29,411 nt of DNA from an uncultured Victivallales bacterium (lineage in GTDB: Bacteria > Verrucomicrobiota > Kiritimatiellia > UBA8416 > CAYOBW01). A program made the position numbers and the translations under genes. The stretch spans positions 1-29,411 of the forward strand of contig CAZKRK010000046.1 in NCBI GenBank assembly GCA_964555035.1, given 5' to 3'. The notes below the pieces were generated by a model. It was not told where the DNA came from. It did not search any database and saw only the letters and a list, made by a program, of their open reading frames with translations. This document shows, one piece after another, positions 7,590 to 27,204 of this stretch (positions are counted from its first letter, which is position 1; each line of letters begins with the position of its first letter).

Positions 7590-7856
7590 TCCTTGTAGGT
7601 TACTGGGGTTCCTGGTCCCTCCCGGACAAGAAATCGGATACTAACGAAAAGGAGCCGAACAAATCAAGCACCGGTTCGCTGAGTCCGCGGCCGCGGGCGC
7701 ATCTCGATCTGCTGCACTTGCCGAGTGGCCCCCACCGGGATAAGCCCGGCGGGGGGGCCTCGGCAAATGCAACAAATCGGCGCCATTGTCAATCCGCCCC
7801 GTTTGTGCCATTTTTCGAGCATTGTGAAGACCTCCACCGAGAACATTGCGGCCGGG

Positions 7857-10800
7857 ATGAGGCAGAACCGGCTCTTTCTCGACCTCGAAACAACCCGGAG
7901 CGGACGCATTCGCAAAGTCGGCGCCGTATTCGGCGATCGTGTTGTGTCGTCGGCACACGACGGGGGCGTGCAACGGGCGCTGTCCATTCTGGACCGAATA
8001 GCCGGCCAGGCCGAGTGCCTCGCGGGACACAACATCGTCGATCACGACCTGCCTGCTCTTCGCCATTGCCGTGCGGACTTGAAACTCCTGCAGGTTCCCG
8101 TGATCGATACGCTCTACCTCTCGCCGATCTGCTTTCCCGAAAATCCCTATCATTGCCTGGTCAAGGACTACAAGTTGGTCTCGGAAACCGTCAGCGATCC
8201 TGTCGAAGACGCCCGCCTGGCCGCAACGCTGTTCGAGGACGAAATCGCGTCTCTGATCGGTATCCGAGAAAGCAGTCCCGAGCTTTTCAAAGCGTTGCAC
8301 CTGCTGACCACAAAGACATCGCCGTCGGATCCCGGATCTCATGCGACCGGAATGAGGCATCTGTTCCGGAGCCTCGGGGCCGACGCGGTCACCGATGACG
8401 CGCTCGAGTGTGTCCGCGGGATGGCGGCGCAGTACGGCTGTCGAACGGCAGCCGTACGCTTGGACCACACGAACCTCACGTCCGCGCAGAAGTGCTGGGC
8501 GCTGGCCTTCGTGCTGACCTGGTTGCGCGTGTCCGGCTCGGATTCCGTCATTCCGCCCTGGGTGCGGCACCGCCACCCGTCCGTCAGCGTATTCCTTCAT
8601 GCGCTCCGGGATGTTCCTTGTGACGACGCGGATTGCCGGTATTGTGCCGAAACCCACAGTCCCGAGAAGCAGCTCAAGCGGTTCTTCGGGTTCGACTGCT
8701 TCCGACCCACGCCGCATGATGGGAACGGCGGCAGCCTGCAACGCCGCATCGTGTTGGCGGGGATGCAGGGAGAATCGCTCCTGGCGATCCTGCCGACAGG
8801 CGGCGGCAAGTCACTCTGCTACCAACTGCCCGCACTTGTCCGCAGCGTCCGGCGAGGGCAGTTGACGGTCGTGATCTCCCCCCTGCAGGCGTTGATGAAA
8901 GACCAGGTGGACGGGCTGCAACGCCGCACCGGCCTTGAAAACGCCGCCGCGCTCTACGGCCTTCTGACGCCGCCCGAGCGTGGTGACGTACTCCGACGTC
9001 TCAGGACAGGTGACATAGCGGTTCTGTACGTATCTCCGGAGCAACTCCGCAACGCTTCCTTCACCAGGGCAATCTCGCAGCGGGAGGTCGGTTGCTGGGT
9101 CGTCGACGAGGCGCATTGCCTGTCGAAATGGGGACACGATTTCCGCCCCGACTACCTCTACATCGGCCGCTTCATGCGCGAGCTCGCCAAGCGTCAGGGA
9201 TGCCCCTTGCCTCCCGTTGCCTGTTTCACCGCCACGGCCAAGCGCGATGTCGCCGAAGAGATCATGGCCTACTTTCAACGTGAGACGGCCATGCCCGTTG
9301 CCCTCTACCAGGGCGGCGTCGAACGCGAGAACCTGTGTTTCGAAGTGCAGACAGTCAGCGCGCCGGCCAAGCTGGGGCGAATCGACGAGTTGCTGCACGA
9401 CCGATTGGATGCGAACGGGAACGAAGGAAGCGCGATCGTCTTTCGTACTACGCGCCGGCTCGCCGAAGAAACGGCCGAGTACTTGTGCAACCAGGGGTGG
9501 CAGGCGGCGTTCTTTCACGCCGGCATGACGCCGCCGGAAAAGAAGCGCACGCAGGACGCGTTTCTCGACGGCGAGCTGCGCGTGATCTGCGCGACGAACG
9601 CGTTCGGCATGGGGATCGACAAGGACGACGTCAGGCTTGTCGTGCACGGCGATTCGCCGGCTTCGATCGAAAACTACCTGCAGGAAGCCGGCCGGGCGGG
9701 CCGTGATCGCGGCCGTGCCGACTGCGTGTTGCTCTATGACGAGGAGGACTGCGAGCAGCAGTTCCGTCTCGGCGCCTTTTCAGAACTGAGCCGGCGCGAT
9801 ATCGCCCAGATTCTGCGCGGGCTCCGTAAAGCCACCCGCACGCACGGCTCGGACAGCGTCGTGATCACGACCGGCGAGCTCATGCGCGACGAGGATGTCG
9901 ACACCACATTCGGGCCCGAAGACCTGTCGGCCGACACCAAAGTACGCGCCGCGATGTCCTGGCTCGAACGTGCCGGCTTCGTCGAACGCAACCAGAATCG
10001 CACCAACGTCTTTCAGGCGCGCCTCCTGGTACGCTCCACCGGGGAGGCGGAGGAGAAGCTCGCGCAGCTCGGCCTGTCCGACGCGGAGTCCCGGCTCTGG
10101 CTCGCCATCGTGCGTGAAATGATCAATGCCGGGGAAACCGACAGCCTGACCGTAGACGGGTTGGCTCTGCTGCCTGAATTCCAAGGCTATCTGAAGACCG
10201 GGGCGGAGTTCATACCGCACCATGTCGTGCGCGAGGGACGCAGCCAGGAGTATCTGAGTTCAAAGGTCCTCAAGGTCCTTAACTCCATGACGAACGTCGG
10301 GATCATGAAGAAGGATACGCTGCTCACCGCGTTCATTGCCTACAAGGTGGCCAACCACTCGCGCGTGCGTTTCGATCGGGTCTGCGCGAGCGATCGCGAA
10401 ATGCTGAAGGTGTTGATGGAAGAAGAGCCCGATCCGGAAGGCTGGCTGCCGCTCAATCTCCGTCTGCTGAACCAGACATTGCTGGATCGCGATGTTTCCG
10501 CGTCACCCCCTTTCCTGCGCAGGTTGTTGCGCAGCTTGAGCGAGGACGGCAAAGGGTTCTCGGGACAAAGGGGCAGCATCGAGTTGCGCCACGTCGGCCG
10601 CGATGCCTATCGGGTTCGGCTGCGGCGCGAGTGGGCACAGATCGCGGAGCTTGCCGAACGCAGGCGTCGCGTGGCCGGTGTGCTGCTCGACGCGATTGTC
10701 TCCAAAGTGCCGTCCGCCACTCCGCCTCGAGCGGACCTCCTCGTGGAGTTCTCTTTCGAAGAACTGACCGCCGCGCTCAACCGGGATCTCGCTCTGCGCT

Positions 10801-13073
10801 CGGACGTCCGCGACATGCAGGCCGCCATCGAACGGGGACTCATGTTCCTGCACGAGCAGAATGTCATTGTCTTGCAGCAAGGACTGGCGGTGTTCCGCTC
10901 GGCCATGACCGTTCGTGTGCTGCCTGAATCGAAAGGGCTGCGCTACACGCAGGACCAGTACCAGGCGCTCGAGCACCACTACCGCGAACGTGTGTTCCAG
11001 GTGCACGTCATGAACGAATACGCCCGGTACGGGATCGAGAAGATCCAGGAGGCGTTGGCTCTGGTTGTGGCATACTTCACAATGGAGAGGGAAGCCTTCA
11101 TTGCCCGCTTCTTCGGATCACGCCGCGAGCTCTTGGAACGTGCAACGACGGCACGCTCATACCGTCGGATTGTCGATGCCCTGGGCAACCGCGAACAGAT
11201 CCGCATCGTGACGGCGCCGCTCAACAAGAACATGCTCATCCTGGCGGGACCCGGATCGGGAAAGACGCGCACCGTCGTCCACCGGTGCGCCTACCTGTTG
11301 CGCGTGAAACGCGTGCGCCCCTCTTCCGTTCTCGTCTGTTGCTTCAACCACAAGGCAGCGCTCGAATTGCGCAGACGCCTCGCGGAGCTTGTCGGCCGCG
11401 ACGCCTGCGGCGTCACGGTTCAGACATACCACGGATTGGCCCTGCGACTGCTGGGGTTCTCGTGCAGCGCGATGAAACCGGACGCTCGCGATTCGCTCGA
11501 CTTCGACAGGTTGATCGTGGACGCCGTGGACCTTCTTGAAGGCGGAAAGGCCGCGGCTGGCCTCGAATCCGACGAAACGCGTGACCGGCTCTTGGCGGGA
11601 TACGAACACATCCTCGTCGACGAGTATCAGGACATCGACGAGGCGCAGTACCATATGATCGGCGCAATCGCCGGGCGGACCCTTGAAGATGGCGATCGCA
11701 AGCTCACCATCCTTGCCGTCGGAGACGATGACCAGTCCATCTACGGTTTCCGCGGCGCGAACGTCACGTTCATTCGCCGTTTCTGCGAAGACTTCGAGGC
11801 CGCCACACACCACCTCGTCGAGAACTACCGGTCTACCCGCTACATCATCGAAGCGGCGAACAGCGTCATTGCCCGCAACCGTGATCGAATGAAGTGCGAC
11901 TTGCCTATTCGCGTTGACGAAGGCCGCCAGCTTTCCCACCCCGGGGGGGCGATTGCCTCACTGCATCCGGAGACAAACGGACGCGTTGCCGTCGTCTCCG
12001 TGCGGGATGACGCCGCACAGGCTGTCGCCGCCGGGACCGAGATTGAGCGGCTTCGGACCCTTGGCGCGAAAGACTGGTCTCGAACGGCAATCCTCTCGCG
12101 AACGCGCCGCGATTTGTCGCTCGTACGCGTCGCGTTGGAGGCGAAATCGATTCCGGTCCAATGGCCTCTGCAGCGCAACAAGCTGCCCTCGATCTACCGA
12201 ATGCGCGAGGTCCATCGTGCTCTCGGCACACTCCGCGAGATGCGAAGCAGCAACAGAACGGCATCGGAGCTCTTCGAGCGCGTCGTCATGCCACCCGGTT
12301 CTTGCGGCAACGCGTGGGCGGGCATGATCGAATCCCTCTTGAGCGCATGGCAGGACGAAACCGGCAACGCCAGCCTTCCCGTTGGTGCTTGCGTCGATTT
12401 CCTCTACGAGTCGCTCGCACAGCGCCGGAGAGACGAACAGTTTGGCGTCGGCGTCGTCCTGAACACGGTCCACGCGGCCAAGGGAACGGAGTACGACCAC
12501 GTTATTCTTTGCGGCGATTGGTCCAATGGGAGCAATGCCGCGGACATCGAAGAAGAACGCCGCGTCTTCTACGTCGGCATGACACGTGCGCGGCATTCGC
12601 TGTGCATTCTCGATCGCGCCGATACGCGCAACCCGTTCCGTGGAGAGCTGGTTGGCCCTTGTTTCGCCCCGCGACATGAGATGGGCCCCGCGAACGGCAA
12701 TCTCGCCTATCGCGACTACACGCTGCTTGGTCTCGATGACATGTTCCTGGACTTTGCGGGCCGGCAGCCGGCCCGCCACCGCGTTCACGAGGCTCTGTCC
12801 GAGCTGAAGCCCGGAGCATCTCTGCAGGCACAAGCGCAGGATGGCCGCGTCTGGCTGGTCCATGGGGCAGGGACAACGATCGGCGCTTTGTCCGCACAGG
12901 CGACAGAACTCTGGCGCGATCGCCTCGACGACATCGACTCGATCCGCGTGGTCGGAATGTACACGCGCCTGCGCGAGGACATCGGCGACAGGAACTTCCT
13001 TGCCCGCATCCGCTGCGACTCGTGGGAAGTCCCGGTCTGCGAGGTCCGCTCCATGCCGGCCGGGCAGGACTGA
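7857..13073 (+). CDS. Giant multidomain helicase-nuclease: DnaQ-like 3'-5' exonuclease + RecQ-family helicase core + unknown ~450-aa middle region + UvrD/PcrA-family helicase core + unknown ~170-aa C-terminal domain
   Basis: Exo I FLDLETT and Exo II [12 protein letters not shown] near the N-terminus. RecQ motifs: [102 protein letters not shown]. UvrD motifs: [98 protein letters not shown]. Single uninterrupted frame. The ORF-track start at 7725 probably over-extends; ATG at 7857 sits immediately before the exonuclease motif. Confidence 0.9.
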   Translation: [1738 protein letters not shown]

Positions 13074-13139
13074 GTTCGTCGATCGCTCCGCCTATGCCGC
13101 CCCTCCGGGGCTTGTTTCCATGCTCGACGCATGTGCGGC

Positions 13140-13251
13140 AAACGTAGGTCCGATTTGCAATCGGACCCAACTCCGGTCGGGTCTGGTCAGCCGTGGCGTT
13201 ATCTGAGGCAACCAGCGGGGTTGGGTCCGATTGCAAATCGGACCTACGTTT
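13140..13251. repeat. REPIN-like inverted-repeat element: perfect 32-bp arms (AAACGTAGGTCCGATTTGCAATCGGACCCAAC) separated by 48 bp; each arm holds a hairpin GGTCCGATT-TGC-AATCGGACC preceded by GTAG
   Basis: 13140-13171 is the exact reverse complement of 13220-13251. Lies between the convergent stops of the two helicase genes. Hairpin core matches the 1855-1985 element at 16 of 21 positions. Confidence 0.85.
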
Positions 13252-13350
13252 ACCGCTCACGCACGTTCCGGCCCTCGGGGAGTCACGAAGCATCCGCTTC
13301 TTCCGCACGAAGGTGTCACAGTTGTTTCCGAGAGGTAAGGTAGTCTGGGC

Positions 13351-16122
13351 CTACGGTCGCGCCAACTCCGCCTCGACGCGCGCGACGAGGTCCAGTCCCT
13401 CTTGGAGAGCACCATCGCCGTCGCTTCCGCCGCCGTCGAAGGCGGCCAGGGCAGAGACGAGGGCTGCGGGTTCTGTCGGGAGCTCGGAACCGTCGCCGTC
13501 GGGCTTTGTTCCGGGACCGTGGTGCAGGACGACGACCGCTTCGCGCCCCGCTCCCAGAACCGTCGCAAGGTGCGGGAGTGCCTGCTCCGCAAGACCCACA
13601 CCCGCCAACGCCTCGACGGCCTTGCGCTCGGCTGCGGTCGTTGCCCAGACCTTGCGTGCCGCGGCACGGTGGAGCTTCGGCTTGGGCCGTTCCCGCGGGG
13701 GCAATGGCGTGTAGCCGTCGGCGGCATGTACCGTATCGATGTCGGCGGACAGCGTGAGGATGCCCATTTCCTGAAGCCGCAGCAGCATCGCGTGCATCTC
13801 CGGCGTAATGACCTCGGCCGTGGCGCCTGCCGCCTCGGCCGTATCGCGAAGCGCATCGAGGTCCGTTCCGGGGCGCGACACGACTACCGTCCCGCCGGTT
13901 TTGGCGTTGCGTTCGATGCCGAGGATGATGTCCGCGTGGCGCGCCGTGAGTTCTTCCTTCAGTGTCCTGGGTTTCTCTTCGCGAGCCGGTGGGGCAGGCG
14001 CCACGGGCTCCCCGCCCAGCAATTCGCCGACGCGCGCCGCAAAGGCCTGGCGACCGGTTTTGCCGCTCGGCCGTTCCTCGAACGCGGCCCCGTCCAGCAC
14101 GGAGTCGGCCAGCGCGGTCTTGTACGCCAACTTGTCGAGCATGGCGCTTTCGATCGAGCGTTCCGCGACCAGGTTGACGACGCGCACGCTTCGCTTCTGG
14201 TGCTTGCGCCAGGCCCGCGCGATGCGCTGCTCCAGCTTCGCCGGATTCCAGGGCAGGTCGAGGTTGATCACGATGTTCGCGGCCTGCAGGTTCAGACCCG
14301 CGCCGCCTGACTCGGACGAGAGAAACACGCGGCAGTCGGCATTCTGCTTGAACATGCGGATCTGCTCGCGCCGTTTCTGCTGGGGGATTCTGCCGGTGTG
14401 TTCCGCGAACCCGATTCCTTTTGCGGTCAGCAGTTCCTTTACGAGGTCGAGCATGCGCACCCACTCCGAGAATATGATGACCTTCGCCTCCGGGTCGTCA
14501 CCCAGCAGGTCGTCGAGGATGTTCTCCAGCTCCTCCAGCTTCGGACAGTCACGGCACTCGGGGTCAAGGATGTAGGGCGTGTCGCAGATCATGCGCATGC
14601 AACCCAGCAAGAGCAGAAGGCGTTCCTGCTCCTTCTTCGTCAACGGGCGCCGTTTCATGATCGAAACGAGCATGGCCACGTCGTATTCGATCTCGGCATA
14701 GCGCGCCCGCTGCTCTTTTGTCATGGAAACGAAGAAGTTCTTGTCGGTACGTTCCGGCAAGGCGTCTTCGACGTCGCTCTTGCGGCGGCGCAACATCACC
14801 GACGAGACCGTGCGGTGCAGCTTGTCCAGGTTCCTGGGGCGGACCTCGTTGTCGGAAGTGAGTTCCATAAACGCGCGCTGAAAACGGAAGAGCGACCCGA
14901 ACACGTGTGGGTCGACGAACTCGACCAACGAGTACAACTCCTCGATGCGGTTTTCCAAGGGCGTTCCGGTCAGCACGAATGCGTATGGACTGCGCACCCG
15001 CTTGATCGTTTTGGCGGTCTTCGTGGGCCAGTTCTTGATGCGTTGCGCCTCATCGAGGATGACGAGGTCCGGAACGAGCAGGCGGTTGATATCGTCCACG
15101 TCATTGCGTACCTGCTCGTAGTTGCAGAGGCTGTACGGATGCTCCTCGGCATAGAGGCGCAGGCGGGCGGGCCGCGATCCGAAGACCGGCTTGGCCTGGC
15201 GGCCGGTGAACTGCATGATCTGGTCCTCCCACTCCGCCTTGAGCGAAGCGGGGCTGACCACCAGCACGCGGCGCACGCGGCCGGACTGGCGCAGCAGCTC
15301 GGCGGCGGCAATCGCCTGCACCGTCTTGCCGAGCCCCATCTCGTCGGCCAGCAGGGCGCGACCGGTGAAAGCCAGATGTGCCATGCCCGCTTTCTGATAG
15401 GGGTACAAGGGAAGGACAACGGGGTTGTCGGTGCGTTTGGCGGCTGCCACGTCGCGATCGAAATGCCGCCGCAGCTCGTCAAGGTCCGTCCTGAACCTCT
15501 CTCGCTCGAGCCAGTAGTCGACGTGTTCGGACAGACGCACGCCCTTCCGCGCCGATGCGGTGAGCATGGCCGTGGCGCGTTCCGCGGCCGTGCACGCGTC
15601 CGTATTGCCGGCCAGGGCGAAGCCTTCATCGCCGAACAGCGACCCCACGCGCCTCTCGACCGCGGCGATGCCCGCTGCCGGCCGCAACAGGCGCAACCGC
15701 GGATTGGGTCCGCGAACGTCCATGAAAATCTCGTAGGCAGGCGATCCCGCCTTTGCCGCGCGGGCAAAGGCGCGCTTCTTGCGGTGCTGGATGAACTGCC
15801 GCACACGCTCGATGTGCTTGCAGCACCCGAGGCGGTTCATGCGGTAGTCCTGACACGAACAACTGTTCAGGTTCTCCGACAGACTCCGAATCTCGACGCG
15901 GTAGGGTTGCTCCCACTGCGTGGACGAGACCTCGAAGAGACCGTGGAAATCGTCACGCATCGCCACGCGGGTGACCTGCGCCTTTTCCTTCTCGGCACTC
16001 TCGCGCCGCAGCACGATGCTCTGCTCATCCGTCGGAAAGCCAACCCGTTTCGGTGGCCGTTTCTGGACCTGTTTGGCCTTCTTGCTTCTGCGTTTCTTCC
16101 GCGTCTTCCGTTCCAAGCTCAT
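13351..16122 (-). CDS. SWIM-zinc-finger SNF2-family helicase/ATPase with ~280-aa C-terminal extension of unknown function
   Basis: Basic N-terminus, then SWIM CxC...CxH (CSCQDYRMNRLGCCKH). SNF2 motifs: LLADEMGLGKTVQ, DLVILDEAQRIKN, LTGTPLENRIEELYSLVEF, and helicase-C LSSESGGAGLNLQAANIVINLDLPWNPAKLEQRIARAWR. 923 aa. Confidence 0.9.
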   Translation of the reverse strand: MSLERKTRKKRRSKKAKQVQKRPPKRVGFPTDEQSIVLRRESAEKEKAQVTRVAMRDDFHGLFEVSSTQWEQPYRVEIRSLSENLNSCSCQDYRMNRLGCCKHIERVRQFIQHRKKRAFARAAKAGSPAYEIFMDVRGPNPRLRLLRPAAGIAAVERRVGSLFGDEGFALAGNTDACTAAERATAMLTASARKGVRLSEHVDYWLERERFRTDLDELRRHFDRDVAAAKRTDNPVVLPLYPYQKAGMAHLAFTGRALLADEMGLGKTVQAIAAAELLRQSGRVRRVLVVSPASLKAEWEDQIMQFTGRQAKPVFGSRPARLRLYAEEHPYSLCNYEQVRNDVDDINRLLVPDLVILDEAQRIKNWPTKTAKTIKRVRSPYAFVLTGTPLENRIEELYSLVEFVDPHVFGSLFRFQRAFMELTSDNEVRPRNLDKLHRTVSSVMLRRRKSDVEDALPERTDKNFFVSMTKEQRARYAEIEYDVAMLVSIMKRRPLTKKEQERLLLLLGCMRMICDTPYILDPECRDCPKLEELENILDDLLGDDPEAKVIIFSEWVRMLDLVKELLTAKGIGFAEHTGRIPQQKRREQIRMFKQNADCRVFLSSESGGAGLNLQAANIVINLDLPWNPAKLEQRIARAWRKHQKRSVRVVNLVAERSIESAMLDKLAYKTALADSVLDGAAFEERPSGKTGRQAFAARVGELLGGEPVAPAPPAREEKPRTLKEELTARHADIILGIERNAKTGGTVVVSRPGTDLDALRDTAEAAGATAEVITPEMHAMLLRLQEMGILTLSADIDTVHAADGYTPLPPRERPKPKLHRAAARKVWATTAAERKAVEALAGVGLAEQALPHLATVLGAGREAVVVLHHGPGTKPDGDGSELPTEPAALVSALAAFDGGGSDGDGALQEGLDLVARVEAELARP

Positions 16123-16269: not shown

Positions 16270-16297
16270 AGGCTCACACCTTGTAAAGTGTGAGCCT
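16270..16297. promoter_or_regulatory. Perfect palindrome AGGCTCACAC-cttgtaaa-GTGTGAGCCT between the regulator stop and the SNF2 promoter region; candidate operator (copy 1 of 2)
   Basis: 10-bp perfect stem with 8-nt A/T-rich loop. The same stem sequence recurs at 16898-16929. Confidence 0.55.
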
Positions 16298-16871
16298 ACC
16301 CCTCCATGCAAGCGATTCGTACCAACTCATGCGCAAGAGGCGATAACTTCCGCGCCAGGGCGTATGTCCCGCGTTGGTTCCGGACGACAATGTCACGGCG
16401 CACCAGTTTGCTCACATGACGCTTCATCGCCGGCAGAGAAATGCCGCATCGAACAACCAGTGCCACAATCGACAACCCCGGCGAGCGATTCAGTTCCCGC
16501 ACGATCCGGATGCGTCTAGGATGTGTGAAAGCTGTAAGGTTCCGAAACGCCCCCTCGATGGCGCCTAGGCGCCTGGAAAGCTGTCGTTTCATCGCGGTGA
16601 CAAGGGCCTCGGAAAACGAGATCGTGCTGTTTGGAGACACAGTGTACACGACCCAACGACTCGTCCGCCGCGCATCCAGGATGCCTCTGGCGTTGAGAGC
16701 CCGAAGACATTGGCTCGCACTGGATTCCGATATGCCTACCTGCGCGGCGACATCGGAGACGCACTGCCGTTGATGTCGAAGCAGAAACCGCAACACAGCG
16801 AGCCGTCTCCGGTTCGCCAATGCCCGGCATGTGCGCCAAAGCGTAGGACTGAGTGAACGCGCGTTCTCCAT
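16296..16871 (-). CDS. Tandem winged-helix (two ArsR/SmtB-like HTH domains) transcriptional regulator
   Basis: First wHTH: LANRRRLAVLRFLLRHQRQCVSDVAAQVGISESSASQCLRALNARGIL...WVVYTV. Second wHTH: HPRRIRIVRELNRSPGLSIVALVVRCGISLPAMKRHVSKLVRRDIVV. ATG at 16871 preferred; the ORF-track start 16907 is a GTG inside the upstream palindrome. Confidence 0.7.
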   Translation of the reverse strand: MENARSLSPTLWRTCRALANRRRLAVLRFLLRHQRQCVSDVAAQVGISESSASQCLRALNARGILDARRTSRWVVYTVSPNSTISFSEALVTAMKRQLSRRLGAIEGAFRNLTAFTHPRRIRIVRELNRSPGLSIVALVVRCGISLPAMKRHVSKLVRRDIVVRNQRGTYALARKLSPLAHELVRIACMEG

Positions 16872-16897
16872 ACCATCTCCAAGTAGACACCTCAACG

Positions 16898-16929
16898 CCA
16901 GGCTCACACGTTATAAGGTGTGAGCCTGG
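16898..16929. promoter_or_regulatory. Perfect palindrome CCAGGCTCACAC-gttataag-GTGTGAGCCTGG ~30 bp upstream of the regulator ATG; candidate autoregulatory operator (copy 2 of 2)
   Basis: 12-bp perfect stem, identical core to 16270-16297; the two loops differ but both are A/T-rich 8-mers. Confidence 0.55.
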
Positions 16930-17361: not shown

Positions 17362-17462
17362 CACAACCCAAGTGTGGCATAGGTAGAAAAACGGGAAGGT
17401 AAGAAGATGGGAGAATTGACGGCATCATCTTTCTACCATCCCATCTTTCTGCCTATCATCTC
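17362..17462. repeat. ~100-bp dyad-symmetric element, copy A (CAACCCAAGTGTGGCATAGGTAGAAAAACGGG...CCCATCTTTCTGCC)
   Basis: ~75% identical over ~100 bp to 28362-28465; both copies have internal inverted repeats GGYAGAAAAAYGGG / CCCATYTTTCTGCC. Confidence 0.7.
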
Positions 17463-17575
17463 CTACACAGGGCTTGGCCAGATTTCTAGTTCTTCTTGCG
17501 CCCCTCGCCCGGCTAAGCCACTACGCCTCGGCCGGGACTTCTCCCGGCAGAGGGGGGCCGCATTCGTGGGCAGTC

Positions 17576-17625
17576 CATTGATGATTGTCGATCGCCGATT
17601 GCCGATTTCTGAAGTTCGAAAACCA
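17576..17625. repeat. Second GATT-iteron block (CCATTGATGATTGTCGATCGCCGATTGCCGATTTCTGAAGTTCGAA), related to the left half of 17063-17170
   Basis: Shares the word order CCATTGAT..GATT..CCGATTG..GATTT..TTCGAA with 17068-17112. Confidence 0.5.
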
Positions 17626-17704
17626 GCAATCAGACCGGACTGCGCGTCGTCGTCACTGCAGACTGAACAGTCTTTTGCCTATTCGCCCGCTGTAGGCGGC
17701 CTAG

Positions 17705-17730
17705 CGGCGGAGGACCGCCGTCTCCAGTGG
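17705..17730. repeat. REP-like hairpin motif CGGCGGAGGACCGCCGTCTCCAGTGG, copy 1 of 3
   Basis: Hairpin CGGCGG-AGGA-CCGCCG followed by TCTCCAGTGG; near-identical copies at 20826-20850 (inverted) and 20939-20964. Confidence 0.7.
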
Positions 17731-17892
17731 CGTCTCCGCAGGGCGCGTAGTCGCTTTCTGTGTGTAATAGGCAGGACAAGCCCGGCGGGGCTACTCTGAA
17801 AGTGCAGCAAATTGCAGATGCGCCCAGCGGCAGCGTACGCTCATAACACTCTTGCCCCCGCCGCGCCTCTCGTGCATGCTTACCGGGAGCGC

Positions 17893-20811
17893 ATGAAAAG
17901 CAGCCCTTTCACACCTATCCGCCTTCTCCACCTCGCCGTCGCAGGCACAATCGCCGCCTGCGCCGGGGGATGTCGTGAGGAACAGGAACAGTCGCCGCGC
18001 CGGGCGTTCGAGCTCGACCTGCGCGATCGCGGAGTCGTGCTGCAGCGGATTACCTACGGGCTGCCCGAAGAGTCGACCGCACGCGTCATACGCTTCGACC
18101 GGCGCGGGTTGCTGCGCTGTGCCCTCTACCTGCGCGACAGCAGCGACGAGAACTCGTTCATATACGTGGACCACGTTGGTGTGGTCACCCGGAACGGCAG
18201 GATTGCGACGACCTTGAAGGAGTACGGGGAATTGCTGGTGACGGGCGACCAACAGGCCCTCTACATCGACGGTACGCCTTTGCCCGTCAACACAAAGGGA
18301 TGGGACACGTTCTGGGTGTCCGCTGACGAAGCCGAACCGGACGTGACCCAGAGAACGTATGCCCCCGTGGACCTGTTCGACAGCTTCATGCGCACCGAGC
18401 TGACGAACGGCTTCTGCCGCGTGACCGACGGTTCCTGGGAGCTCAAACAACGCGGCGGCGGAATGCCGACGGAGGAAGAGGACTACCACAACGCCAGTTT
18501 TCAGCGGGCCGTCAACCCCTTCTCCATCCGGGGCGAAGAGCAGGGCCGGTTGACGTACGGTGACGACGATTGGATGAACTATCACGCTGAGGCGAGCTTC
18601 TACTTCGGCATACCGCGAACGATAAGCTGGAGCGATGCAGAGAACCTGCCCGTCGAAACGGACATGCTCATCGCGCAGGGCACGACCAACGGAAACCAGG
18701 TAGCGTTCGGCTGGTCCGGGCGCCATCGCGGATTCGTCCTCATGTCCCGTAGCGGTTCGTCCCTCTGGAAGGTGCTCGAACGCTGGGGCGGCAAGCGTCC
18801 CCCGCTGACGAACTGGTGCCGTATCGGTCTGCGCATCCACGCCGGCTATATCGCCGAAGGCATGCTCGACCGCAAAGCCGTACTGCGCACAAACCTGGCC
18901 ACGTGCATTGTCGGTCCATTCCACGTCATTGCGGGAGAGGCCCCCATCGAGGCCGACACGATTCGCGCCTACTCCCTGCCGCCAAAGCCGAACCTGGGCG
19001 ATACGGCGCACGTCAAGAGCCGCTTCTTCTCGGCCAAGAAGGAGCTCGGCAAATCCCGCGACCCGACGCAGTTCGGGGAGTGGTCCAAGTCTACCAGCGT
19101 TTTCGTGGAGTCACGCGAGACCGATACCAACGGCAATCACAAGGCCGTCATCACGATGCGGGTGCCGCTCATGGGCGACTTCACGGTCGACTCGGTGCCG
19201 TTCGACGACGAGGCCGGCGCCATACCGCCGGGCCCGTACGAGTTCGCCTTCCGGATAGCCGATACAAACGAGTTCGAGGCCATCATGGAGCATCCGCCGG
19301 TCCTCTCGCTGAAGGCCAGGCTCTCAGGCACGGGCTGGGCGCTTGAAGACCTGCCGGAAGATGTCTGGCCCGCGGGCCACCGCGAATTCGCTCTCCGCTT
19401 CGCCCGGCGAAGGGCCGAGGACAACAGGATCGTCGTTCTCTGCGGCGGGTCTGCGACGCCGCTTTCGCCCCCGCTGACGGAGCCGTTGCTCGTATCGGTT
19501 GCGCGCGTGGAAAAGGGCGGCAAACCGGATTACCCGTTCCCGCAGCATCACCTCATCCGTTGCGCAAACCTCGCAAACGAGTTGTTCGAGGAAGCGCCGG
19601 CGGATTGGAGCTGGATCGAAGGCGCCTTCCGCATGGATTGCCGCTGGGCCTGCATGAACCAGTGGAATTTCATGGCGTGCGGCTCGCCCGGCATCCCCTA
19701 CATGACCAGCAAGCGGACTTTCACGGGCGACCAGGTGCACGAGTGCTTCATGTCGTTGCGGCCGGCCCAGCCCTGCGACGCGTACGACAAGGACTTCTTC
19801 TATGACCGCAAAAAGGACGGCGGTCTCAGGCTGTTCCGCGCCAACGGCGGCTGGTACAACCGACGCGATCTCAACGTCTGTTTCTGCACCAACGGCCGCG
19901 ACCCCCTTTCCGGCTACAGCATCGTGTTTGCCGGGAGAGACAACAAGGAGACGTTTCTCCTGCGCAAAGGACGCGTCGTGGCTGCCTCCCAGAACAAGAA
20001 GTTCCTCTTCCACGGCACAAGCCATTCGAGCGTTCACTGGAAATGGTGGAAGTTCACGGTCGACAAGCGTGGCGGCCGTATCCGGTGTTCGCTCAACGAC
20101 ACCGTTATGTTTGACTATCACGATCCCGAGCCGATTCCCGGGGGACACCTTGGTTTCTGGTCCGTGCGCAACGGCTTCACGCTGGCACGCGTCATTTCCG
20201 TCGCCGAATCGGTCGGTTTGGAGCCGCACGCCCTGTTCGTAGGTGACGATGAGGACAGCCCGTGGGTGCCCCTCAAGCGCGACAGCGTTGTTGTCACGCG
20301 CTCATCCGGGGCCGGACTCACCCGCGCCACCGCCACCGTAGGCGGCGGGTTCTTCGCCATGCGCTACACGCTCCCCGTTCCGGTCGATTTGAACAAAACG
20401 CCCGTCATGAAACTGCCGCTTGACATCGGCTACGAAGCGGCCGTGAATCTTCACGCCGATATCGGCGGCACCGCATACGTGATTCCCCTGACGGCGCCCA
20501 TCTCCGAGATGAAAGCGTTGCTGGCCCCGGAATTCGAAAAGGGAGAGTGTTTCAAAATCCCGACCATCGACGAAGCCGTCATTCTACAGACGCGCTACCT
20601 TCGCAACGCCCGCCTGACTCACAATCTGTTGACCGTGGACTTCGCCGCGGCCCTGGAGGAGACCGGCGAGAAGCCCGAGACGCTGGAGCTCAGGAGCATC
20701 ACCATCGGCAACAGCAGCAACCAGGGCTACCTGTTGGCCGGAGCGAACGGCAGAAACGCGGCCGGCGCATGGTACGAAGTAGGTGTGCCCACATTCCGGA
20801 CACGTCAGTAA
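17893..20811 (+). CDS. Large secreted lipoprotein (~970 aa) of unknown function with an internal DUF1080/LamG (concanavalin-like) domain
   Basis: N-terminus MKSSPFTPIRLLHLAVAGTIAAC has a positive n-region, hydrophobic core and lipobox IAAC. Segment WKFTVDKRGGRIRCSLNDTVMFDYHDPEPIPGGHLGFWSVRNGFTLARV fits the DUF1080 pattern W..y.i....g.i.v.lNG..v......GG.iGlQ.h....v.FRNi. The ORF-track start 17812 lacks a signal peptide and overlaps the upstream motif. Confidence 0.65.
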   Translation: MKSSPFTPIRLLHLAVAGTIAACAGGCREEQEQSPRRAFELDLRDRGVVLQRITYGLPEESTARVIRFDRRGLLRCALYLRDSSDENSFIYVDHVGVVTRNGRIATTLKEYGELLVTGDQQALYIDGTPLPVNTKGWDTFWVSADEAEPDVTQRTYAPVDLFDSFMRTELTNGFCRVTDGSWELKQRGGGMPTEEEDYHNASFQRAVNPFSIRGEEQGRLTYGDDDWMNYHAEASFYFGIPRTISWSDAENLPVETDMLIAQGTTNGNQVAFGWSGRHRGFVLMSRSGSSLWKVLERWGGKRPPLTNWCRIGLRIHAGYIAEGMLDRKAVLRTNLATCIVGPFHVIAGEAPIEADTIRAYSLPPKPNLGDTAHVKSRFFSAKKELGKSRDPTQFGEWSKSTSVFVESRETDTNGNHKAVITMRVPLMGDFTVDSVPFDDEAGAIPPGPYEFAFRIADTNEFEAIMEHPPVLSLKARLSGTGWALEDLPEDVWPAGHREFALRFARRRAEDNRIVVLCGGSATPLSPPLTEPLLVSVARVEKGGKPDYPFPQHHLIRCANLANELFEEAPADWSWIEGAFRMDCRWACMNQWNFMACGSPGIPYMTSKRTFTGDQVHECFMSLRPAQPCDAYDKDFFYDRKKDGGLRLFRANGGWYNRRDLNVCFCTNGRDPLSGYSIVFAGRDNKETFLLRKGRVVAASQNKKFLFHGTSHSSVHWKWWKFTVDKRGGRIRCSLNDTVMFDYHDPEPIPGGHLGFWSVRNGFTLARVISVAESVGLEPHALFVGDDEDSPWVPLKRDSVVVTRSSGAGLTRATATVGGGFFAMRYTLPVPVDLNKTPVMKLPLDIGYEAAVNLHADIGGTAYVIPLTAPISEMKALLAPEFEKGECFKIPTIDEAVILQTRYLRNARLTHNLLTVDFAAALEETGEKPETLELRSITIGNSSNQGYLLAGANGRNAAGAWYEVGVPTFRTRQ

Positions 20812-20825
20812 CGCTCGGAGACTGG

Positions 20826-20964
20826 TACTGGAGACGGCGGTCCTCCGCCGTTACGGAGCAAGGTGTTGAGCACAAACGGAAACAGAAGTGAACGAAGTTC
20901 CCGCATGTTCCACCAAGTGCGCACTCACTTGCGCGCAACGGCGGAGAACCGCCGTCTCCAGTGG
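20826..20964. repeat. REPIN-like doublet: two inverted copies of CGGCGGAG(G/A)ACCGCCGTCTCCAGT (20826-20850 reverse; 20939-20964 forward) ~90 bp apart, in the intergenic region between the lipoprotein and O-antigen-ligase-like genes
   Basis: Both copies seen directly; 23 of 23 identity to copy 1 for the inverted copy, and 1 mismatch for copy 3. Confidence 0.7.
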
Positions 20965-20986
20965 CGGCGATACTGTCGGAAGTCCC

Positions 20987-22792
20987 ATGAAACGTATGCG
21001 TAAACTGAGCAGATTCTACACCGTAGCTGCCGCGGCCGTGTTGGGCGCGGCCGTCTGCCAGGTCGGCATTGGCGCTCAGTTCACGGCAACGGGAGAGCAG
21101 ACCGGCATCGCCGTTCCCGTTTCTTCGGTCGTAGTGGCAGTCTTCTTCCTTCTATGCGCCGTGGTGGATTGGCCGCCGCGTCTGCCGACCCTCGGCCGCA
21201 TGCAGTCGCTGTTCATCGTCCTGTTTGCAGTGGGCATCGTGGGATTGCCCCGCGTCCATATGGCCACGGGCGCCAAAGAGACGATCCAGCTCGCGGAGAT
21301 GACCGTTCTGGCCTCCTTCGTGTTCGAAGGCCTTTGCCGACGCGAGCACACGCGCCGAACAGCGCGCGTCTTCGCGGTACTGTGCGGCTTACTGCTCCTT
21401 CTGGCCTGTGCCAACCAGCTCGAGCATCCCTGGTTCGGCTTGAGCCATACCAAGTACGCCGCTTTCGTCATTCTTGCCTGGCCCTTCATGATGCTGGCGT
21501 TGAAGGATGCAAAGACATCGTTCAAACGGACCGCCGTTCTGCTCGCCGCCCTTGCCGTCGGTCTTACGTTCCGCCACGGGTGGTTGATCATCGTCTGGTA
21601 CATCGTCTTTCTAACCAGCTGCGCACGCTTCCGTACGGTTGCCGTGAAATGGATGCTGCTGTTCGCGCTCCTGGCGGGACTGGTCACGCCCCTGGCGATA
21701 TACGGGCGTGGGAACCCATGGAAGATGCTGACCCATCGTTACGATTCCGAGCACCTCTCCCGGTTTGCGGTCGAAGCCGTTGCCGCGGTCAAGGGGCCGC
21801 GCTACTTCCCCCTCGGCGGCGGACCGGGCCGCTACAAGCAAACGATCGACGAACTGAAGCAGTACCAGCCGCACGTGCCGCATCCCGAAGACCGCACGGT
21901 GCCCAGGGACGGCAACAACCAGTATCTGGTGACGCTGGTTGAGGCCGGGCTGCCCGCCGCGGTCGCTCTGCTTCTGCTGCTGACGGTAAACCTGTTCGGC
22001 ATAGGGATGCGGGACGACACCGACCGCGAATTCCAGTTTGCACGACGGGTTGCGATGCTTGGCGCCCTGCTCGCCGCGGCAACCTGCGTACTCGTCTCGC
22101 GCGGCGCCTGCATCTGGCTCGGCGCGCTGATCGGGCTCGGCAACGGTTCGCGCCCGACGCCCAGGTGGCTGGCGCGATTCGTACGGCTCGTGCTTCCCGC
22201 GGCAGCGGTGGCCGCCGCGGCGGTCGCGATGCAGTGGTACAACCGCCAGCTCAATCCCCTGGGCGGAGTCAGCACCGCAAACCGCGAAGTGCGCCAATAC
22301 ATGTACGGGGAAAAGGGACTCGAAAGCCTGGGGCTCAGAATCGTCCAGCTCCAGGACAAGGTCGAAACGGAGAAGCAGGGGGACGTCGTCGAGATCGAGG
22401 CAGAGACCTTTGACGAAGCCACTGTTCCTTTCACGGTCATTCGCGATAACGGCGCCTCGGGCGGCCACGCCGCGGCCATCCCGCAGGACAAGGGCAAAGG
22501 CACGGGCAAGGCGCTCTACACGATCGACATTCCCGTCGACGGCTTCTACCTGCTCTATGCCCGCGTCTTCTGGCTCGACGGCTGTTCCAACAGCTTCCTG
22601 TTCGAGGTCGCCGACAAGCGTATGCTGCTGGCCAGCGACATCTTCGGCCGCTGGCACACCCTCGAAACCAAGGAGCCCATGCGACTCGGCCGGGGCCCCG
22701 CCAAGATCACCGTCCACAACGTCGAAGACGGCGTGCGCCTCGACACCATCGGCCTACGCAGAGTCCCGCCGCCGAGCATGCGGGTGCAGTGA
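20987..22792 (+). CDS. Polytopic membrane protein, O-antigen ligase/polymerase (Wzy_C/WaaL-like) family, with a ~170-aa C-terminal soluble (likely periplasmic) domain
   Basis: About 10-12 hydrophobic helices. Motif RDGNNQYLVTLVEAGLPAAVALLLLL resembles the WaaL/Wzy_C signature H-N-x-y-L-q-x-l-a-E-x-G. The C-terminal 170 aa are hydrophilic. Confidence 0.55.
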   Translation: MKRMRKLSRFYTVAAAAVLGAAVCQVGIGAQFTATGEQTGIAVPVSSVVVAVFFLLCAVVDWPPRLPTLGRMQSLFIVLFAVGIVGLPRVHMATGAKETIQLAEMTVLASFVFEGLCRREHTRRTARVFAVLCGLLLLLACANQLEHPWFGLSHTKYAAFVILAWPFMMLALKDAKTSFKRTAVLLAALAVGLTFRHGWLIIVWYIVFLTSCARFRTVAVKWMLLFALLAGLVTPLAIYGRGNPWKMLTHRYDSEHLSRFAVEAVAAVKGPRYFPLGGGPGRYKQTIDELKQYQPHVPHPEDRTVPRDGNNQYLVTLVEAGLPAAVALLLLLTVNLFGIGMRDDTDREFQFARRVAMLGALLAAATCVLVSRGACIWLGALIGLGNGSRPTPRWLARFVRLVLPAAAVAAAAVAMQWYNRQLNPLGGVSTANREVRQYMYGEKGLESLGLRIVQLQDKVETEKQGDVVEIEAETFDEATVPFTVIRDNGASGGHAAAIPQDKGKGTGKALYTIDIPVDGFYLLYARVFWLDGCSNSFLFEVADKRMLLASDIFGRWHTLETKEPMRLGRGPAKITVHNVEDGVRLDTIGLRRVPPPSMRVQ

Positions 22793-23008: not shown

Positions 23009-24448
23009 ATGGACACGATAATCGGGCGAGAAGCGGAAAAACGAGTGCTGAGGGCGGCACTCGAATCGGGTGAGGCCGAGTTCATCGCCGTATACGGACG
23101 CCGGCGAGTGGGCAAGACTTACCTTGTCAGTCGGTTCTTCGACCGGGCCGCTTTCTACTTCGAGTTAACCGGCACGCGTGACGGGCCGCTGCACGAGCAA
23201 CTGGCGAACTTTGCGGACGTTCTTGGACGCAAGGCCGGTCTGGATTTGGCTGTGCCGAAAAGCTGGGCCGAGGCGTTTCGGCAGCTCGTTCGCGTGTTGG
23301 AGGCCCGGCCGGCCGCGGGGAAACGCGACCGAACCGTTCTCTTTTTCGATGAAACTCCCTGGCTGGCCTCACGACGCTCGCGCTTCTTGTCGGCGCTGAG
23401 CTATTTCTGGAACTCCTGGGCCGGTCGGCGCCCCGACATCGTCTTGATCGTCTGCGGTTCGTCGGCGTCCTGGATGCTGGAAAAGGTAGTGGCCGACAGA
23501 GGAGGCCTGCACAACCGTCTTACGCGACGAATTCGTCTGATGCCTTTCACATTGCAAGAGACGGAGGCCTTCTTGCGATCGCGTGGCGTGCGGCTCGACC
23601 GACGACAGATTATCGACGTCTTCATGGTGGCCGGCGGCATTCCTCAATACCTGAAGCAAGTCGAGCCGGGACGGTCGTCGGCGCAGAGCATCGATGCGAT
23701 GTGCTTCCAGCCGGATGGCTTCCTGTACGACGAGTTCGATCGCCTGTACGCTTCCCTGTTCCATGATTCGGCCAAGCACATTGCCGTTGTCCGTGCGTTG
23801 GCGAAAACGCGTTCAGGGTTGTCGCGAACGGCACTGTTGAAACGGGCCGGTCTCGCATCGGGCGGAACGTCGACACGGGTTCTGACCGCGCTCGAAGAGT
23901 CGGGCTTCATTGCCCGGCACGTACCCTTCGGCCAGAGAGTCAACAACGCGCGATACCGGCTGATCGACGAGTACAGTCTCTTCTACCTTACCTGGATGGA
24001 GGGGAAGCGGCACGACTTGCTGAGCGAGTCGTGGTCGACGCAGTCGCAGTCCCGGCGGTGGTCAGCCTGGGCGGGGTTCAGTTTCGAGGGAGTGTGTTGG
24101 AAGCATGTCGACCGGATTACAGCCGAGTTGGGCATAGCCGGAGTACAGACCAGAGCGTCGACGTGGCAGCACAGAGGCGGTCCGGGAGAACAAGGTGCGC
24201 AGATCGATTTGCTCATAGACCGTGCGGACCGATGTATCTCGATCTGCGAAATCAAACACGGTGAAGGTGTTTTTGCCATTGACCGGAAGTACGCGGCCGA
24301 ACTGAGACGCAAGCTGGACGTGTTTCGCCTGCAATCGGGCACCCGCAAGACCCTGTTTCTGGTGATGGTCACGCCGAGCGGTTGCAAGCACAACGACTAT
24401 TTCACGCAGTTGGTGACTGACGAAGTGCGTCTGGAGTGCTTGTTCTGA
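23009..24448 (+). CDS. PF01637-type (archaeal/bacterial 'ATPase_2') P-loop ATPase with C-terminal DUF234 domain (PD-(D/E)xK nuclease-like)
   Basis: Walker A GRRRVGKTYL; Walker B VLFFDETPW. C-terminal IDLLIDRADRCISICEIKHGEG fits the D...E-x-K restriction-endonuclease-like motif typical of DUF234. 479 aa. Confidence 0.85.
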   Translation: MDTIIGREAEKRVLRAALESGEAEFIAVYGRRRVGKTYLVSRFFDRAAFYFELTGTRDGPLHEQLANFADVLGRKAGLDLAVPKSWAEAFRQLVRVLEARPAAGKRDRTVLFFDETPWLASRRSRFLSALSYFWNSWAGRRPDIVLIVCGSSASWMLEKVVADRGGLHNRLTRRIRLMPFTLQETEAFLRSRGVRLDRRQIIDVFMVAGGIPQYLKQVEPGRSSAQSIDAMCFQPDGFLYDEFDRLYASLFHDSAKHIAVVRALAKTRSGLSRTALLKRAGLASGGTSTRVLTALEESGFIARHVPFGQRVNNARYRLIDEYSLFYLTWMEGKRHDLLSESWSTQSQSRRWSAWAGFSFEGVCWKHVDRITAELGIAGVQTRASTWQHRGGPGEQGAQIDLLIDRADRCISICEIKHGEGVFAIDRKYAAELRRKLDVFRLQSGTRKTLFLVMVTPSGCKHNDYFTQLVTDEVRLECLF

Positions 24449-25860: not shown

Positions 25861-26897
25861 GATACCCTCACATGCCATTTGAGCCGGTCAGGCTTGGTGA
25901 CCGTCACACCTACATCCAGAAACTGCTTCAACACTTCGACATTCGTGGCCGAATGCCTCGTCAGGGGCAGCGTCGTGAACTCGCCCTCTCCGGCCACCGC
26001 CATGGGCACCAGGAGCTGGTCCGCAAGGTAACGCCCAACTGGTACGTCTGACGTCAGGTACTCGCGTACCGGCTTCACAACCGAACGCGCGACCCGCTCG
26101 GACGGGACTCCCCTTTCGCCAAAACCGGTGAAGACTCCGCTAACGTGTTCGCTTTCGAGGATGACCATGACGACGTTGCCCGGTCCGCGCGGCGCCGTGA
26201 CCTGCTCAATGCGCGTGGCACCGTCCACGATCGGCAGCAGCCTCCCCAGGGTCGCAAGCTCCTTCTCCGCGATAGACCGTGGGAGCTGCGAGACTATCGC
26301 CACGGCCTCGTGCCGTACAAGCTCGCCGCGTTCGAGAAGCTCGATGGGCGCAAGCCCGCCGGCCGGAGCAATATCCACCGTGAAACACCCGCCGCCCGCC
26401 GGGTAAAAGCCGGGACGGTCGAGAGTGGCTGTCACCGTCGGCCCCATCCGGTTGACGATGGGCAGAAACGAGCGCGTCAGGAAGTCAAAAGGCGGCGCGT
26501 ACGGATTGTGAGTGCCGCCCTCCAGCGTCAGGCGCGACGGGCCGTCGGCCAACAGCAATGCCGGCAGCACCGTCTGCAGAACCAGCGTGGCGCTGCCCGC
26601 CGTGCCGACGGCAAAACGGTATTCGCCTGCCTTCGCGCGCTTCGGCCTGAACGTCAGTCCGCGCGACTTCATCTCGTTGCCGTCTACGGACGCGGAACTC
26701 ACCGCGGCCGCGGCATTCACGGCCGTGAGATGCTGCCGCAGCAACCCCGGCTTGCGCCGTCCCGCACGGATATTCGTGATCCGAAACGGCTGCCCCGTAA
26801 CGAGGGAAAGTGCCAGGGAAGTCCGCAGCACCTGTCCTCCGCCCTCACCAAATGAACCATCAATCGTAATCATTGTGATTCTCTCTCCCATGCTCAT
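25857..26897 (-). CDS. rtcA: RtcA RNA 3'-terminal phosphate cyclase
   Basis: IDGSFGEGGGQVLRTSLALSLVTGQPFRITNIRAGRRKPGLLRQHLTAVNAAAAV matches the RtcA N-terminal signature. Expected ~340 aa when started at MSMGER (26897). The ORF-track extension to 27158 runs through a hairpin-rich non-coding leader and is probably not translated. Confidence 0.85.
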   Translation of the reverse strand: MSMGERITMITIDGSFGEGGGQVLRTSLALSLVTGQPFRITNIRAGRRKPGLLRQHLTAVNAAAAVSSASVDGNEMKSRGLTFRPKRAKAGEYRFAVGTAGSATLVLQTVLPALLLADGPSRLTLEGGTHNPYAPPFDFLTRSFLPIVNRMGPTVTATLDRPGFYPAGGGCFTVDIAPAGGLAPIELLERGELVRHEAVAIVSQLPRSIAEKELATLGRLLPIVDGATRIEQVTAPRGPGNVVMVILESEHVSGVFTGFGERGVPSERVARSVVKPVREYLTSDVPVGRYLADQLLVPMAVAGEGEFTTLPLTRHSATNVEVLKQFLDVGVTVTKPDRLKWHVRVS

Positions 26898-27125: not shown

Positions 27126-27204
27126 TCCGGCGAGTCTACGAAGACACGCCCCCGCCACCGGGGGCCGGGGTACGCCCCTGCGTACCTCCGGCTCCCCGGG
27201 CCGA

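Follow-up and report, generated by a model that had tools for sequence, protein, structure and literature searches.

A 1738-residue bacterial protein uniting a DEDD exonuclease fold with RecQ-like and UvrD-like helicase motors

The gene and its product

The stretch of DNA analysed here—29,411 nucleotides (nt) of contig CAZKRK010000046.1 (assembly GCA_964555035.1) from an uncultured Victivallales bacterium, referred to below in its whole length as the window—carries a giant helicase gene that encodes one real chain of 1738 residues, in which a DEDD exonuclease fold, a RecQ-like motor, a winged-helix array and a UvrD-like motor follow one another (Table 1). The gene lies in a single uninterrupted open reading frame (ORF) of the forward strand, positions 7725–13073, free of stops and frameshifts, and the content of guanine and cytosine (GC) is even over it (0.61–0.64), the junctions included. 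The methionine encoded at 7857 (MRQNRLFLDLETT...) is the point where the alignments with homologues begin and thus gives the protein its length; two alternative starts lie upstream, ATG at 7767, chosen by public gene calls (1768 residues), and GTG at 7725. It should be pointed out here that residue numbers are counted from the ATG at 7857, and that those of the earlier note—a model's reading of the same DNA from its letters and reading frames—were counted from GTG 7725 and are higher by 44. The threefold fusion proposed in that note is borne out, the RecQ and UvrD cores by Pfam and NCBIfam and the exonuclease fold by structural and profile comparison, and its domain boundaries were right within about 20 residues.

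Conservation was counted over 57 divergent family members. The 56 representatives of at least 1650 residues, which share 33–49% overall identity, contain every module in collinear order. Their mean identity to the query is highest in the RecQ core (55%), followed by the UvrD core (42%), the exonuclease (41%), the winged-helix array (33%), the helical domain (28%) and the C-terminal domain (25%).

Table 1 Coordinates of the giant helicase gene, its modules and the other features of the window
Feature	Position (nt)	Strand	Extent and remarks
Giant helicase, whole gene	7857..13073	+	1738 aa plus stop; homologues align from about residue 3–6 of the 7857 start
DEDD (DnaQ/TREX-like) 3'-5' exonuclease fold	7857..8276	+	aa 1–140; D9/E11, H58-N59...D64, S113, D118
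Helical domain	8277..8666	+	aa 141–270; Cys3(His) cluster at its end; AlphaFold2 model and conservation
RecQ-type superfamily 2 (SF2) helicase core	8667..9776	+	aa 271–640; motifs 0 to VI; PF00270, PF00271, TIGR00614
Tandem winged-helix array	9777..11111	+	aa 641–1085; about 4–5 modules, then a long helix into the UvrD core
UvrD/Rep/PcrA-type superfamily 1A (SF1A) helicase core	11112..12626	+	aa 1086–1590; motifs I to VI; PF00580, PF13245, PF13361, PF13538
C-terminal domain	12627..13070	+	aa 1591–1738; 148 residues; fold without detected relatives
Inverted repeat, 47 nt	13129–13262		arms 13129–13175 and 13216–13262; 91% complementary, 40-nt spacer
SNF2-family helicase	13351–16122	-	923 aa; convergent with the giant helicase gene
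Double winged helix-turn-helix (wHTH) protein	16296–16907	-	203 aa; MarR/ArsR/IclR-like; PADLOC Csa3-like matches
Three same-strand ORFs	17407–22792	+	130, 999 and 634 aa; after a low-GC (0.54) intergenic stretch at about 16.5–17.5 kb
ATPase_2/AAA + winged helix protein	23009–24448	+	479 aa; matches the candidate defence family PDC-S27 of PADLOC over its whole length (E 3.8e-181)
RtcB	24478–25878	-	RNA-repair pair with RtcA
RtcA	25857–27158	-	RNA-repair pair with RtcB
SPFH/Band7 protein	27205–28311	-
tRNA-Pro(TGG)	28884–28959	-

The two helicase motors

The RecQ-like motor is covered by the Pfam families DEAD (residues 294–466) and Helicase_C (510–617), and its score with the NCBIfam model recQ_fam (TIGR00614), 277 bits against a cut-off of 219.8, places it among the RecQ-family cores. 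Motifs 0, I, Ia, II (DEAH), III, IV, V and VI are all present and conserved in the 57 members, with 51 of the 370 columns of the core invariant and with PTGxGKS, DEAH and QEAGRAGRD as conserved strings. Neither the four-cysteine Zn-binding module of RecQ nor an RQC domain was detected after the core, the model TIGR01389 aligning only at its positions 4–338 of 591, and the search for HRDC returned no Pfam match at E ≤ 0.1. The expectation of a complete set of RecQ motifs without a Zn-binding or RQC cluster behind it therefore holds.

The second motor matches UvrD-helicase/AAA_19 at residues 1111–1313 and UvrD_C/UvrD_C_2 at residues 1531–1584, with 156 bits for PF00580, 89 bits for PF13245 and 82 bits for PF13361, PF13538 matching as well, and is an SF1A core with domains 1A and 2A. 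Its motifs I, Ia, II (DEYQD), III (GDDDQ), IV (NYRS), V and VI are present and conserved in the 57 members, the conserved strings being AGPGSGKT, DEYQD, GDDDQ, NYRS and TRA. Orthology with UvrD, Rep or PcrA is not indicated: the NCBIfam equivalogs gave 195 bits against a cut-off of 1144 for uvrD, 206 against 911 for pcrA, 158 against 951 for rep and 136 against 543 for helicase IV. Among the defence models of PADLOC, the RecQ part (residues 266–757) was matched by DpdF (PDLC02864, E 9e-107) and PsyrT (E 9.5e-81), and the GajB models matched the UvrD core only.

The exonuclease domain

No Pfam model covers the N-terminal, middle and C-terminal domains; the isolated N-terminus, searched alone, had no significant Pfam match, RNase_T included. 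An AlphaFold2 model of residues 1–270 was built from an alignment with 36 full-length homologues and reached a mean predicted local distance difference test (pLDDT) of 90 and a predicted template modelling score (pTM) of 0.88. In this model residues 1–140 show the strand-helix order of the RNase H-like/DnaQ fold, followed by the helical domain. In structural comparison the exonuclease domain scored 11.9 with the TREX1 homologue Plex9.1, 11.7 with the S. aureus DinG exonuclease (197 residues aligned), 11.2 with the PolC exonuclease, 11.1 with the Pol II exonuclease, 10.8 with both Exonuclease X and DnaQ epsilon, 10.5 with both Cas2-DEDDh and Cap18, and 8.3 with the WRN exonuclease, and Foldseek against the PDB found the same exonuclease folds, marginally (best E 7.5e-3). 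The family profile compared with the PDB matched TREX1-like and Pol II exonucleases, with FLDLETT lying on Exo I and GHNxxxHDL on Exo II.

Concerning the active site, the hhalign alignment with E. coli DnaQ sets D9/E11 on D12/E14 and D64 on D103, runs through DTLxLSPxxFP and stops just short of Exo III; when it is extended with a two-residue gap, S113 falls on His162 and D118 on Asp167. The Exo III string itself, SDPVEDARLAATLF, occupies residues 113–126. The acidic tetrad is intact throughout the family, D9 and E11 being kept in 56 of 56 aligned members (one row is gapped) and D64 and D118 in all 57. Position 113, which in the canonical H-x4-D arrangement holds the Exo III histidine, is occupied by Asn in 45, Ser in 6, Pro in 4, Lys in 1 and Gly in 1 of the 57. 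The serine of the query, pointed out already in the earlier note, is thus confirmed by the DnaQ alignment called for there, although it is a minority residue in a family with asparagine as the consensus. Of the characteristics of DEDDh nucleases, the domain accordingly has the RNase H-like DnaQ fold and the four acidic residues, the Exo III histidine being absent. Y98, H99 and K103 are invariant as well (57/57) and form a Y98-H99-x3-K103 element in a flexible loop before Exo III. A reading of H99-x4-D104 as the true Exo III was ruled out, D104 being kept in only 36 of the 57 members, in contrast to the invariant D118, which the alignments put at D167 of DnaQ.

The helical domain, the winged-helix array and the C-terminal domain

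The domain between the exonuclease and the RecQ core is all-helical in the model, with pLDDT mostly above 85. It ends, just before RecQ motif 0, in the cluster C255-x4-C260-x2-C263-x3-H267 (nt 8619–8657), conserved at C255 in 56, at C260 and C263 in all and at H267 in 43 of the 57 members; judged from this pattern, it is probably a zinc knuckle. The middle region, taken for one of unknown nature in the earlier note, is instead the tandem winged-helix array. Searched in isolation, neither it nor the C-terminal domain gave a significant Pfam match. The C-terminal domain, left unassigned there, is so still: a 26-sequence profile matched nothing in the PDB, and the 26 members searched singly against Pfam gave nothing significant. 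No full-length relative lacks it; its sequence is weakly conserved and has, close to the end, a W-E-V-P motif the Trp of which is near-invariant.

Authenticity and distribution of the family

The identical ORF was found on at least nine contigs from several JGI metagenome samples, flanked by the same neighbours, and a database search returned 120 full-length relatives of about 1,740 residues each, 54–66% identical, from metagenome-assembled genomes of Kiritimatiellia/Verrucomicrobiota. Where these relatives are named at all in RefSeq or JGI, the name is only the generic "RecQ family ATP-dependent DNA helicase". HMMER, run exhaustively with the N-terminal 270 residues, yielded 1065 clusters at 50% identity, 664 of them at E ≤ 1e-10. 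Shorter distinct architectures were considered and rejected, the representatives of 600–1400 residues looking mostly truncated or internally deleted.

To cover species, a pattern scan derived from the N-terminal alignment was run over 185,579 species genomes, one genome per species. At least 596 of them, i.e. about 0.3% or more, were positive, including members of Verrucomicrobiota, Desulfobacterota, Gamma- and Alphaproteobacteria, Lentisphaerae, Spirochaetes, Planctomycetes, Binatia, Methylomirabilota and Hydrogenedentota. Of the 91 loci fetched, 78 contain the complete collinear gene, and most of the others run off the contig end. The order of the modules is strictly the same across phyla. 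Full-length copies occur on 19 plasmids of cultured bacteria, the hosts being Thiothrix, Cereibacter, Allochromatium vinosum DSM 180, Paracoccus, Croceicoccus, Rhizobium, Sulfitobacter and Microvirga. The copy on pALVIN01 of A. vinosum DSM 180 bears the locus tag ALVIN_RS15835, and a member in Cereibacter sphaeroides the tag D0Z66_20275. The N-terminal identity to the query in the species scan is about 50–58% in different phyla alike, which makes a horizontal transfer of the family possible. A phage origin was considered and is not supported, a tblastn search of 50,697 phage genomes having found none and IMG/VR containing 3 clear family matches in 2.9 million viral contigs.

The architecture had been called unusual, and this is true of the design and not of its frequency, in view of the 596 or more species genomes and roughly a thousand clusters at 50% identity. 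It was also conceived that it might turn out to be a common, already-named family; common it is, but the only name it bears is the generic RecQ label.

Comparison with known systems

The order of an N-terminal DEDD-superfamily 3'-5' exonuclease and a RecQ-type core in one polypeptide is shared with WRN. The likeness ends there: WRN consists of a DEDDy exonuclease, RecQ, RQC and HRDC, whereas the family lacks both RQC and HRDC and its exonuclease is closer to DnaQ/TREX, so that of the description "WRN-like" only the order of the two modules can be retained. An N-terminal DnaQ-like exonuclease is present also in ExoDinG, i.e. DinG of Staphylococcus/Bacillus with an N-terminal DEDDh exonuclease (PDB 9ii8), regarded as the closest structural neighbour with 197 residues aligned. 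ExoDinG differs, however, in its XPD/DinG-type helicase of the 5'-3' class and in its canonical DEDDh histidine, and it contains neither a UvrD module nor a winged-helix array.

The likeness to DpdF, of the Dpd 7-deazaguanine system, and to PsyrT/RqlH concerns the RecQ core and the region after it, both covered by the PADLOC matches. The protein is nevertheless not a DpdF, as NF041063 gave 185 bits against a cut-off of 550 and neither the window nor the related loci showed dpd genes. In the case of PsyrT, no antitoxin neighbours were found at the family member. No exonuclease or UvrD fusion of DpdF or PsyrT/RqlH was found described in the literature searched. With UvrD/PcrA/Rep and GajB the family shares a complete SF1A motor with motifs I–VI, but the motor stays far below the equivalog cut-offs and occupies the C-terminal end in a protein of far greater size; the absence of any GajA-like (ATPase-TOPRIM) neighbour separates it from Gabija.

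The concept of an ATP-driven translocation coupled to DNA degradation is common to RecBCD/AddAB and to the single-protein defence helicase-nucleases (Hna). RecBCD has motors of opposite polarity on separate subunits and a PD-(D/E)xK nuclease. The giant helicase, by contrast with both RecBCD and Hna, combines in one chain a DEDD nuclease and two motors, SF2 and SF1A, that nominally share their polarity. Hna is a single helicase-like protein of 845 residues, an immune effector with 3'-5' exonuclease activity on single-stranded DNA (ssDNA), one SF2 core and a PD-(D/E)xK-like nuclease (PMC13381803). The protein is thus a helicase-nuclease by its make-up and a member of no named one; every catalytic module comes from a well-known superfamily, and the SF2 + SF1A + DEDD architecture is undescribed.

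Gene neighbourhood and regulation

For the survey of the neighbourhood, ORFs were called in 88 loci and 819 neighbours were clustered. No neighbour family was specifically recurrent; the recurrent clusters were generic paralogues only, namely histidine kinases, response regulators, ABC ATPases and an AAA_14/DUF4143 ATPase (3 loci), those of the histidine kinases and ABC ATPases being the largest. The 128 nearest neighbours cover 157 Pfam families, each in at most three loci. With no recurring neighbour family, the gene stands alone, without a conserved partner. PADLOC, applied to the nearest neighbours, recognized three cases of PDC-S01, two of PDC-S05 and a single one of each of JetA, AbiLi and a type I S subunit. 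Individual contexts, frequently of a mobile or defence-like character, include a type I restriction-modification system and an HNH gene directly downstream of the family member on Allochromatium pALVIN01, a type I-D CRISPR-Cas system and a WYL gene near that of a Thiothrix plasmid, as well as toxin-antitoxin pairs, insertion sequence/transposase genes and one integrase/excisionase island.

The AAA_14/DUF4143 ATPase (PDC-S01 in PADLOC) is situated 55–150 bp upstream of the family member in two of its loci, L016 (2464–3609) and L036 (8795–9946), and about 4 kb away on the opposite strand in the other one, L028 (4795–5970); three loci are too few for an association. It should also be noted that two gammaproteobacterial plasmids, those of Thiothrix fructosivorans (L009, 15664–16245) and Allochromatium vinosum (L010, 22605–23094), have a separate small gene annotated as 3'-5' exonuclease 1.5–8.5 kb from the family member, which may be a coincidence.

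The upstream regions of 14 gammaproteobacterial and 2 alphaproteobacterial members were scanned for LexA boxes, with one match only, a LexA-box-like site in one of the 14 gammaproteobacterial loci. This low count would speak against SOS control.

The surroundings of the gene in the window

To the left of the helicase gene are ordinary genes—a sulfatase, an OEP/MacB efflux pair and a GFO oxidoreductase—and to the right a more island-like stretch. The PADLOC models of ZorD, DpdE, DrmD and BrxH match the core (residues 238–680) of the SNF2-family protein encoded there, with 3e-62 as the lowest E value; roughly 230 residues at its N-terminus and 240 at its C-terminus have no assignment. As a partner of the giant helicase the SNF2 gene is not supported, since it joined no recurring neighbour cluster. 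The double-wHTH protein is encoded beside the SNF2 gene, in the same orientation, and possibly regulates it. Among the three ORFs that follow, the 999-residue protein has no Pfam or PADLOC match and no hydrophobic segments, and the 634-residue one has about nine predicted membrane segments and a weak Wzy_C (O-antigen ligase-like) match. The PDC-S27 homologue gives the right half of the window the look of a defence island. The GC skew is strongly negative from about 24.5 kb.

The giant helicase and SNF2 genes converge, with 278 bp between their stops, and the inverted repeat lies in this gap. Folded as RNA it reaches -94 kcal/mol (z = -10 versus shuffles), each arm contains the near-palindrome GGTCCGATTTGCAATCGGACC, and the repeat has no second copy in the window. 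A bidirectional terminator, a small mobile element and an RNA gene are all conceivable identities for it.

Interpretation and alternatives

Based on the above results, the giant helicase is taken, with moderate confidence, for a representative of a widespread uncharacterised family of stand-alone bacterial two-motor helicase-exonucleases encoded by an accessory gene. Several points weigh against this interpretation. Neither PADLOC nor the curated NCBIfam collection has a model that matches the protein in full length, and no description or study of an exonuclease-RecQ-UvrD family was found in the literature searched. The neighbours are very mixed, with housekeeping-type genes (MreB, 6PGD and a tRNA synthetase among them) and only a handful linked to defence, so that any association with defence leans to the soft side. 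As for the enzyme, without the Exo III histidine the sequence does not assure nuclease activity; the Tyr98-His99 loop is a candidate substitute for the classical general-base histidine, inferred only, and the model has low confidence in just this loop (pLDDT 51–74). Finally, two motors of the same polarity have no obvious way of cooperating on a simple DNA end, which keeps the model of action at a fork, given below, speculative.

Among the other explanations, an artefact of assembly or annotation joining separate exonuclease, RecQ and UvrD genes is hardly credible: no point supporting it was found, and the ORF is identical on at least nine independently assembled contigs, has full-length collinear homologues in finished plasmids and chromosomes of cultured strains, and runs with even GC over its junctions and no stop or frameshift. 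The check for a chimera, raised in the earlier note, is therefore settled in favour of a real fusion. It is also very unlikely that the protein is a component of a multi-gene system resembling DISARM, Dpd or Zorya together with the SNF2 and wHTH genes of the window. The convergent ZorD/DpdE/DrmD-like neighbour and the DpdF matches of the RecQ part would suit such a system, but among the other 87 loci nothing recurs beyond generic paralogues, the SNF2 ORF joined no recurring cluster, the NCBIfam model of DpdF was missed by a wide margin (185 bits versus 550) and the window showed no further genes of the dpd, zor or drm kind. More weight, though still of a doubtful kind, is given to the view that the N-terminal domain is a dead pseudo-exonuclease binding 3' ends or ssDNA, in the manner of Exuperantia or the exo-like domain of Pol alpha, and that the protein is a pure two-motor translocase. 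The replacement of the general-base histidine by Ser in the query and by Asn, Ser or Pro in the family would agree with it, as would the missing RNase_T match and the presence of inactive exo-like domains among the structural matches. The metal-site acids, however, are invariant at a mean identity of the exonuclease domains of only about 41%, which would not be expected without catalysis, and Y98, H99 and K103 are invariant likewise. The metal site thus appears to be under selection, and a non-canonical, catalytic exonuclease domain probably fits better than a dead one. Of the two possibilities left side by side in the earlier note, inactive or non-canonical, the latter is the more likely, because the four acids and the Tyr98-His99 pair are invariant.

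The strongest competitor, possible yet clearly less probable than the interpretation preferred here, is a host enzyme of DNA repair and recombination—a functional analogue of WRN with a built-in anti-recombinase of the UvrD type, serving stalled or reversed forks and not immunity. All three catalytic modules do belong to families of repair and replication, there is neither a toxin-like effector nor a conserved partner, many neighbours are of the housekeeping kind, and the family is absent from the 50,697 phage genomes searched and was met on only 3 viral contigs among 2.9 million. Such a role accords poorly, on the other hand, with an occurrence in only some 0.3% of species or more, dispersed among many phyla at similar inter-phylum identity, with copies that are often plasmid-borne or placed beside restriction-modification, CRISPR, toxin-antitoxin, insertion sequence or integrase genes, with a LexA-box-like site in just one of 14 gammaproteobacterial loci, and with a RecQ part matching the defence-type DpdF and PsyrT models as well as true RecQ. 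The patchy, plasmid-rich distribution slightly favours an accessory, horizontally spread DNA-processing enzyme with a defence-like action on foreign or replicating DNA over one of host fork repair.

Proposed mode of action

Motors of the RecQ family and of the UvrD/Rep/PcrA family translocate 3'→5' on ssDNA, and DEDD nucleases remove nucleotides from 3' ends. In the two-motor helicase-exonuclease preferred here, the motors, tethered by the winged-helix array, would probably each engage a strand or arm of its own on a single branched or 3'-ended DNA, for which a replication fork, a D-loop or a gapped duplex are candidates. One motor would be enough for a simple 3'-tailed end, and it is the presence of two of the same polarity on a long flexible tether that points to two strands or arms. 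The exonuclease, adjoining the RecQ-like motor, might trim the 3' end which that motor exposes, as WRN does at regressed forks, and the UvrD-like motor might clear proteins or unwind the other arm. A bolder version, put forward quite tentatively and considered rather improbable, is that of an autonomous single-gene machine of novel design for immunity or fork processing, the same-polarity motors of which, tethered by the winged-helix chain, would grip the two arms of a replication fork or another branched intermediate of an invading replicon and reverse or strip it, the non-canonical exonuclease with its relocated Tyr-His pair destroying the nascent 3' end.

Implications

Fusions of helicases with nucleases play a central part in DNA repair, as in WRN, RecBCD and AddAB, and a growing one in anti-phage immunity, with Hna and Gabija among the examples. 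The family described here joins motors from two helicase superfamilies to a proofreading-type nuclease in a chain whose whole length is conserved across many phyla, and offers a natural system for the question of how two motors of the same polarity cooperate on one DNA substrate, as well as a variant of DEDD nuclease without the classical general base that is open to study. Since members are found in bacteria that can be grown in culture and are accessible to genetics—Cereibacter sphaeroides, Rhizobium, Allochromatium vinosum and Paracoccus versutus—these questions are directly testable. The label "RecQ family ATP-dependent DNA helicase" hides at least one distinct family of 1,700-residue proteins.

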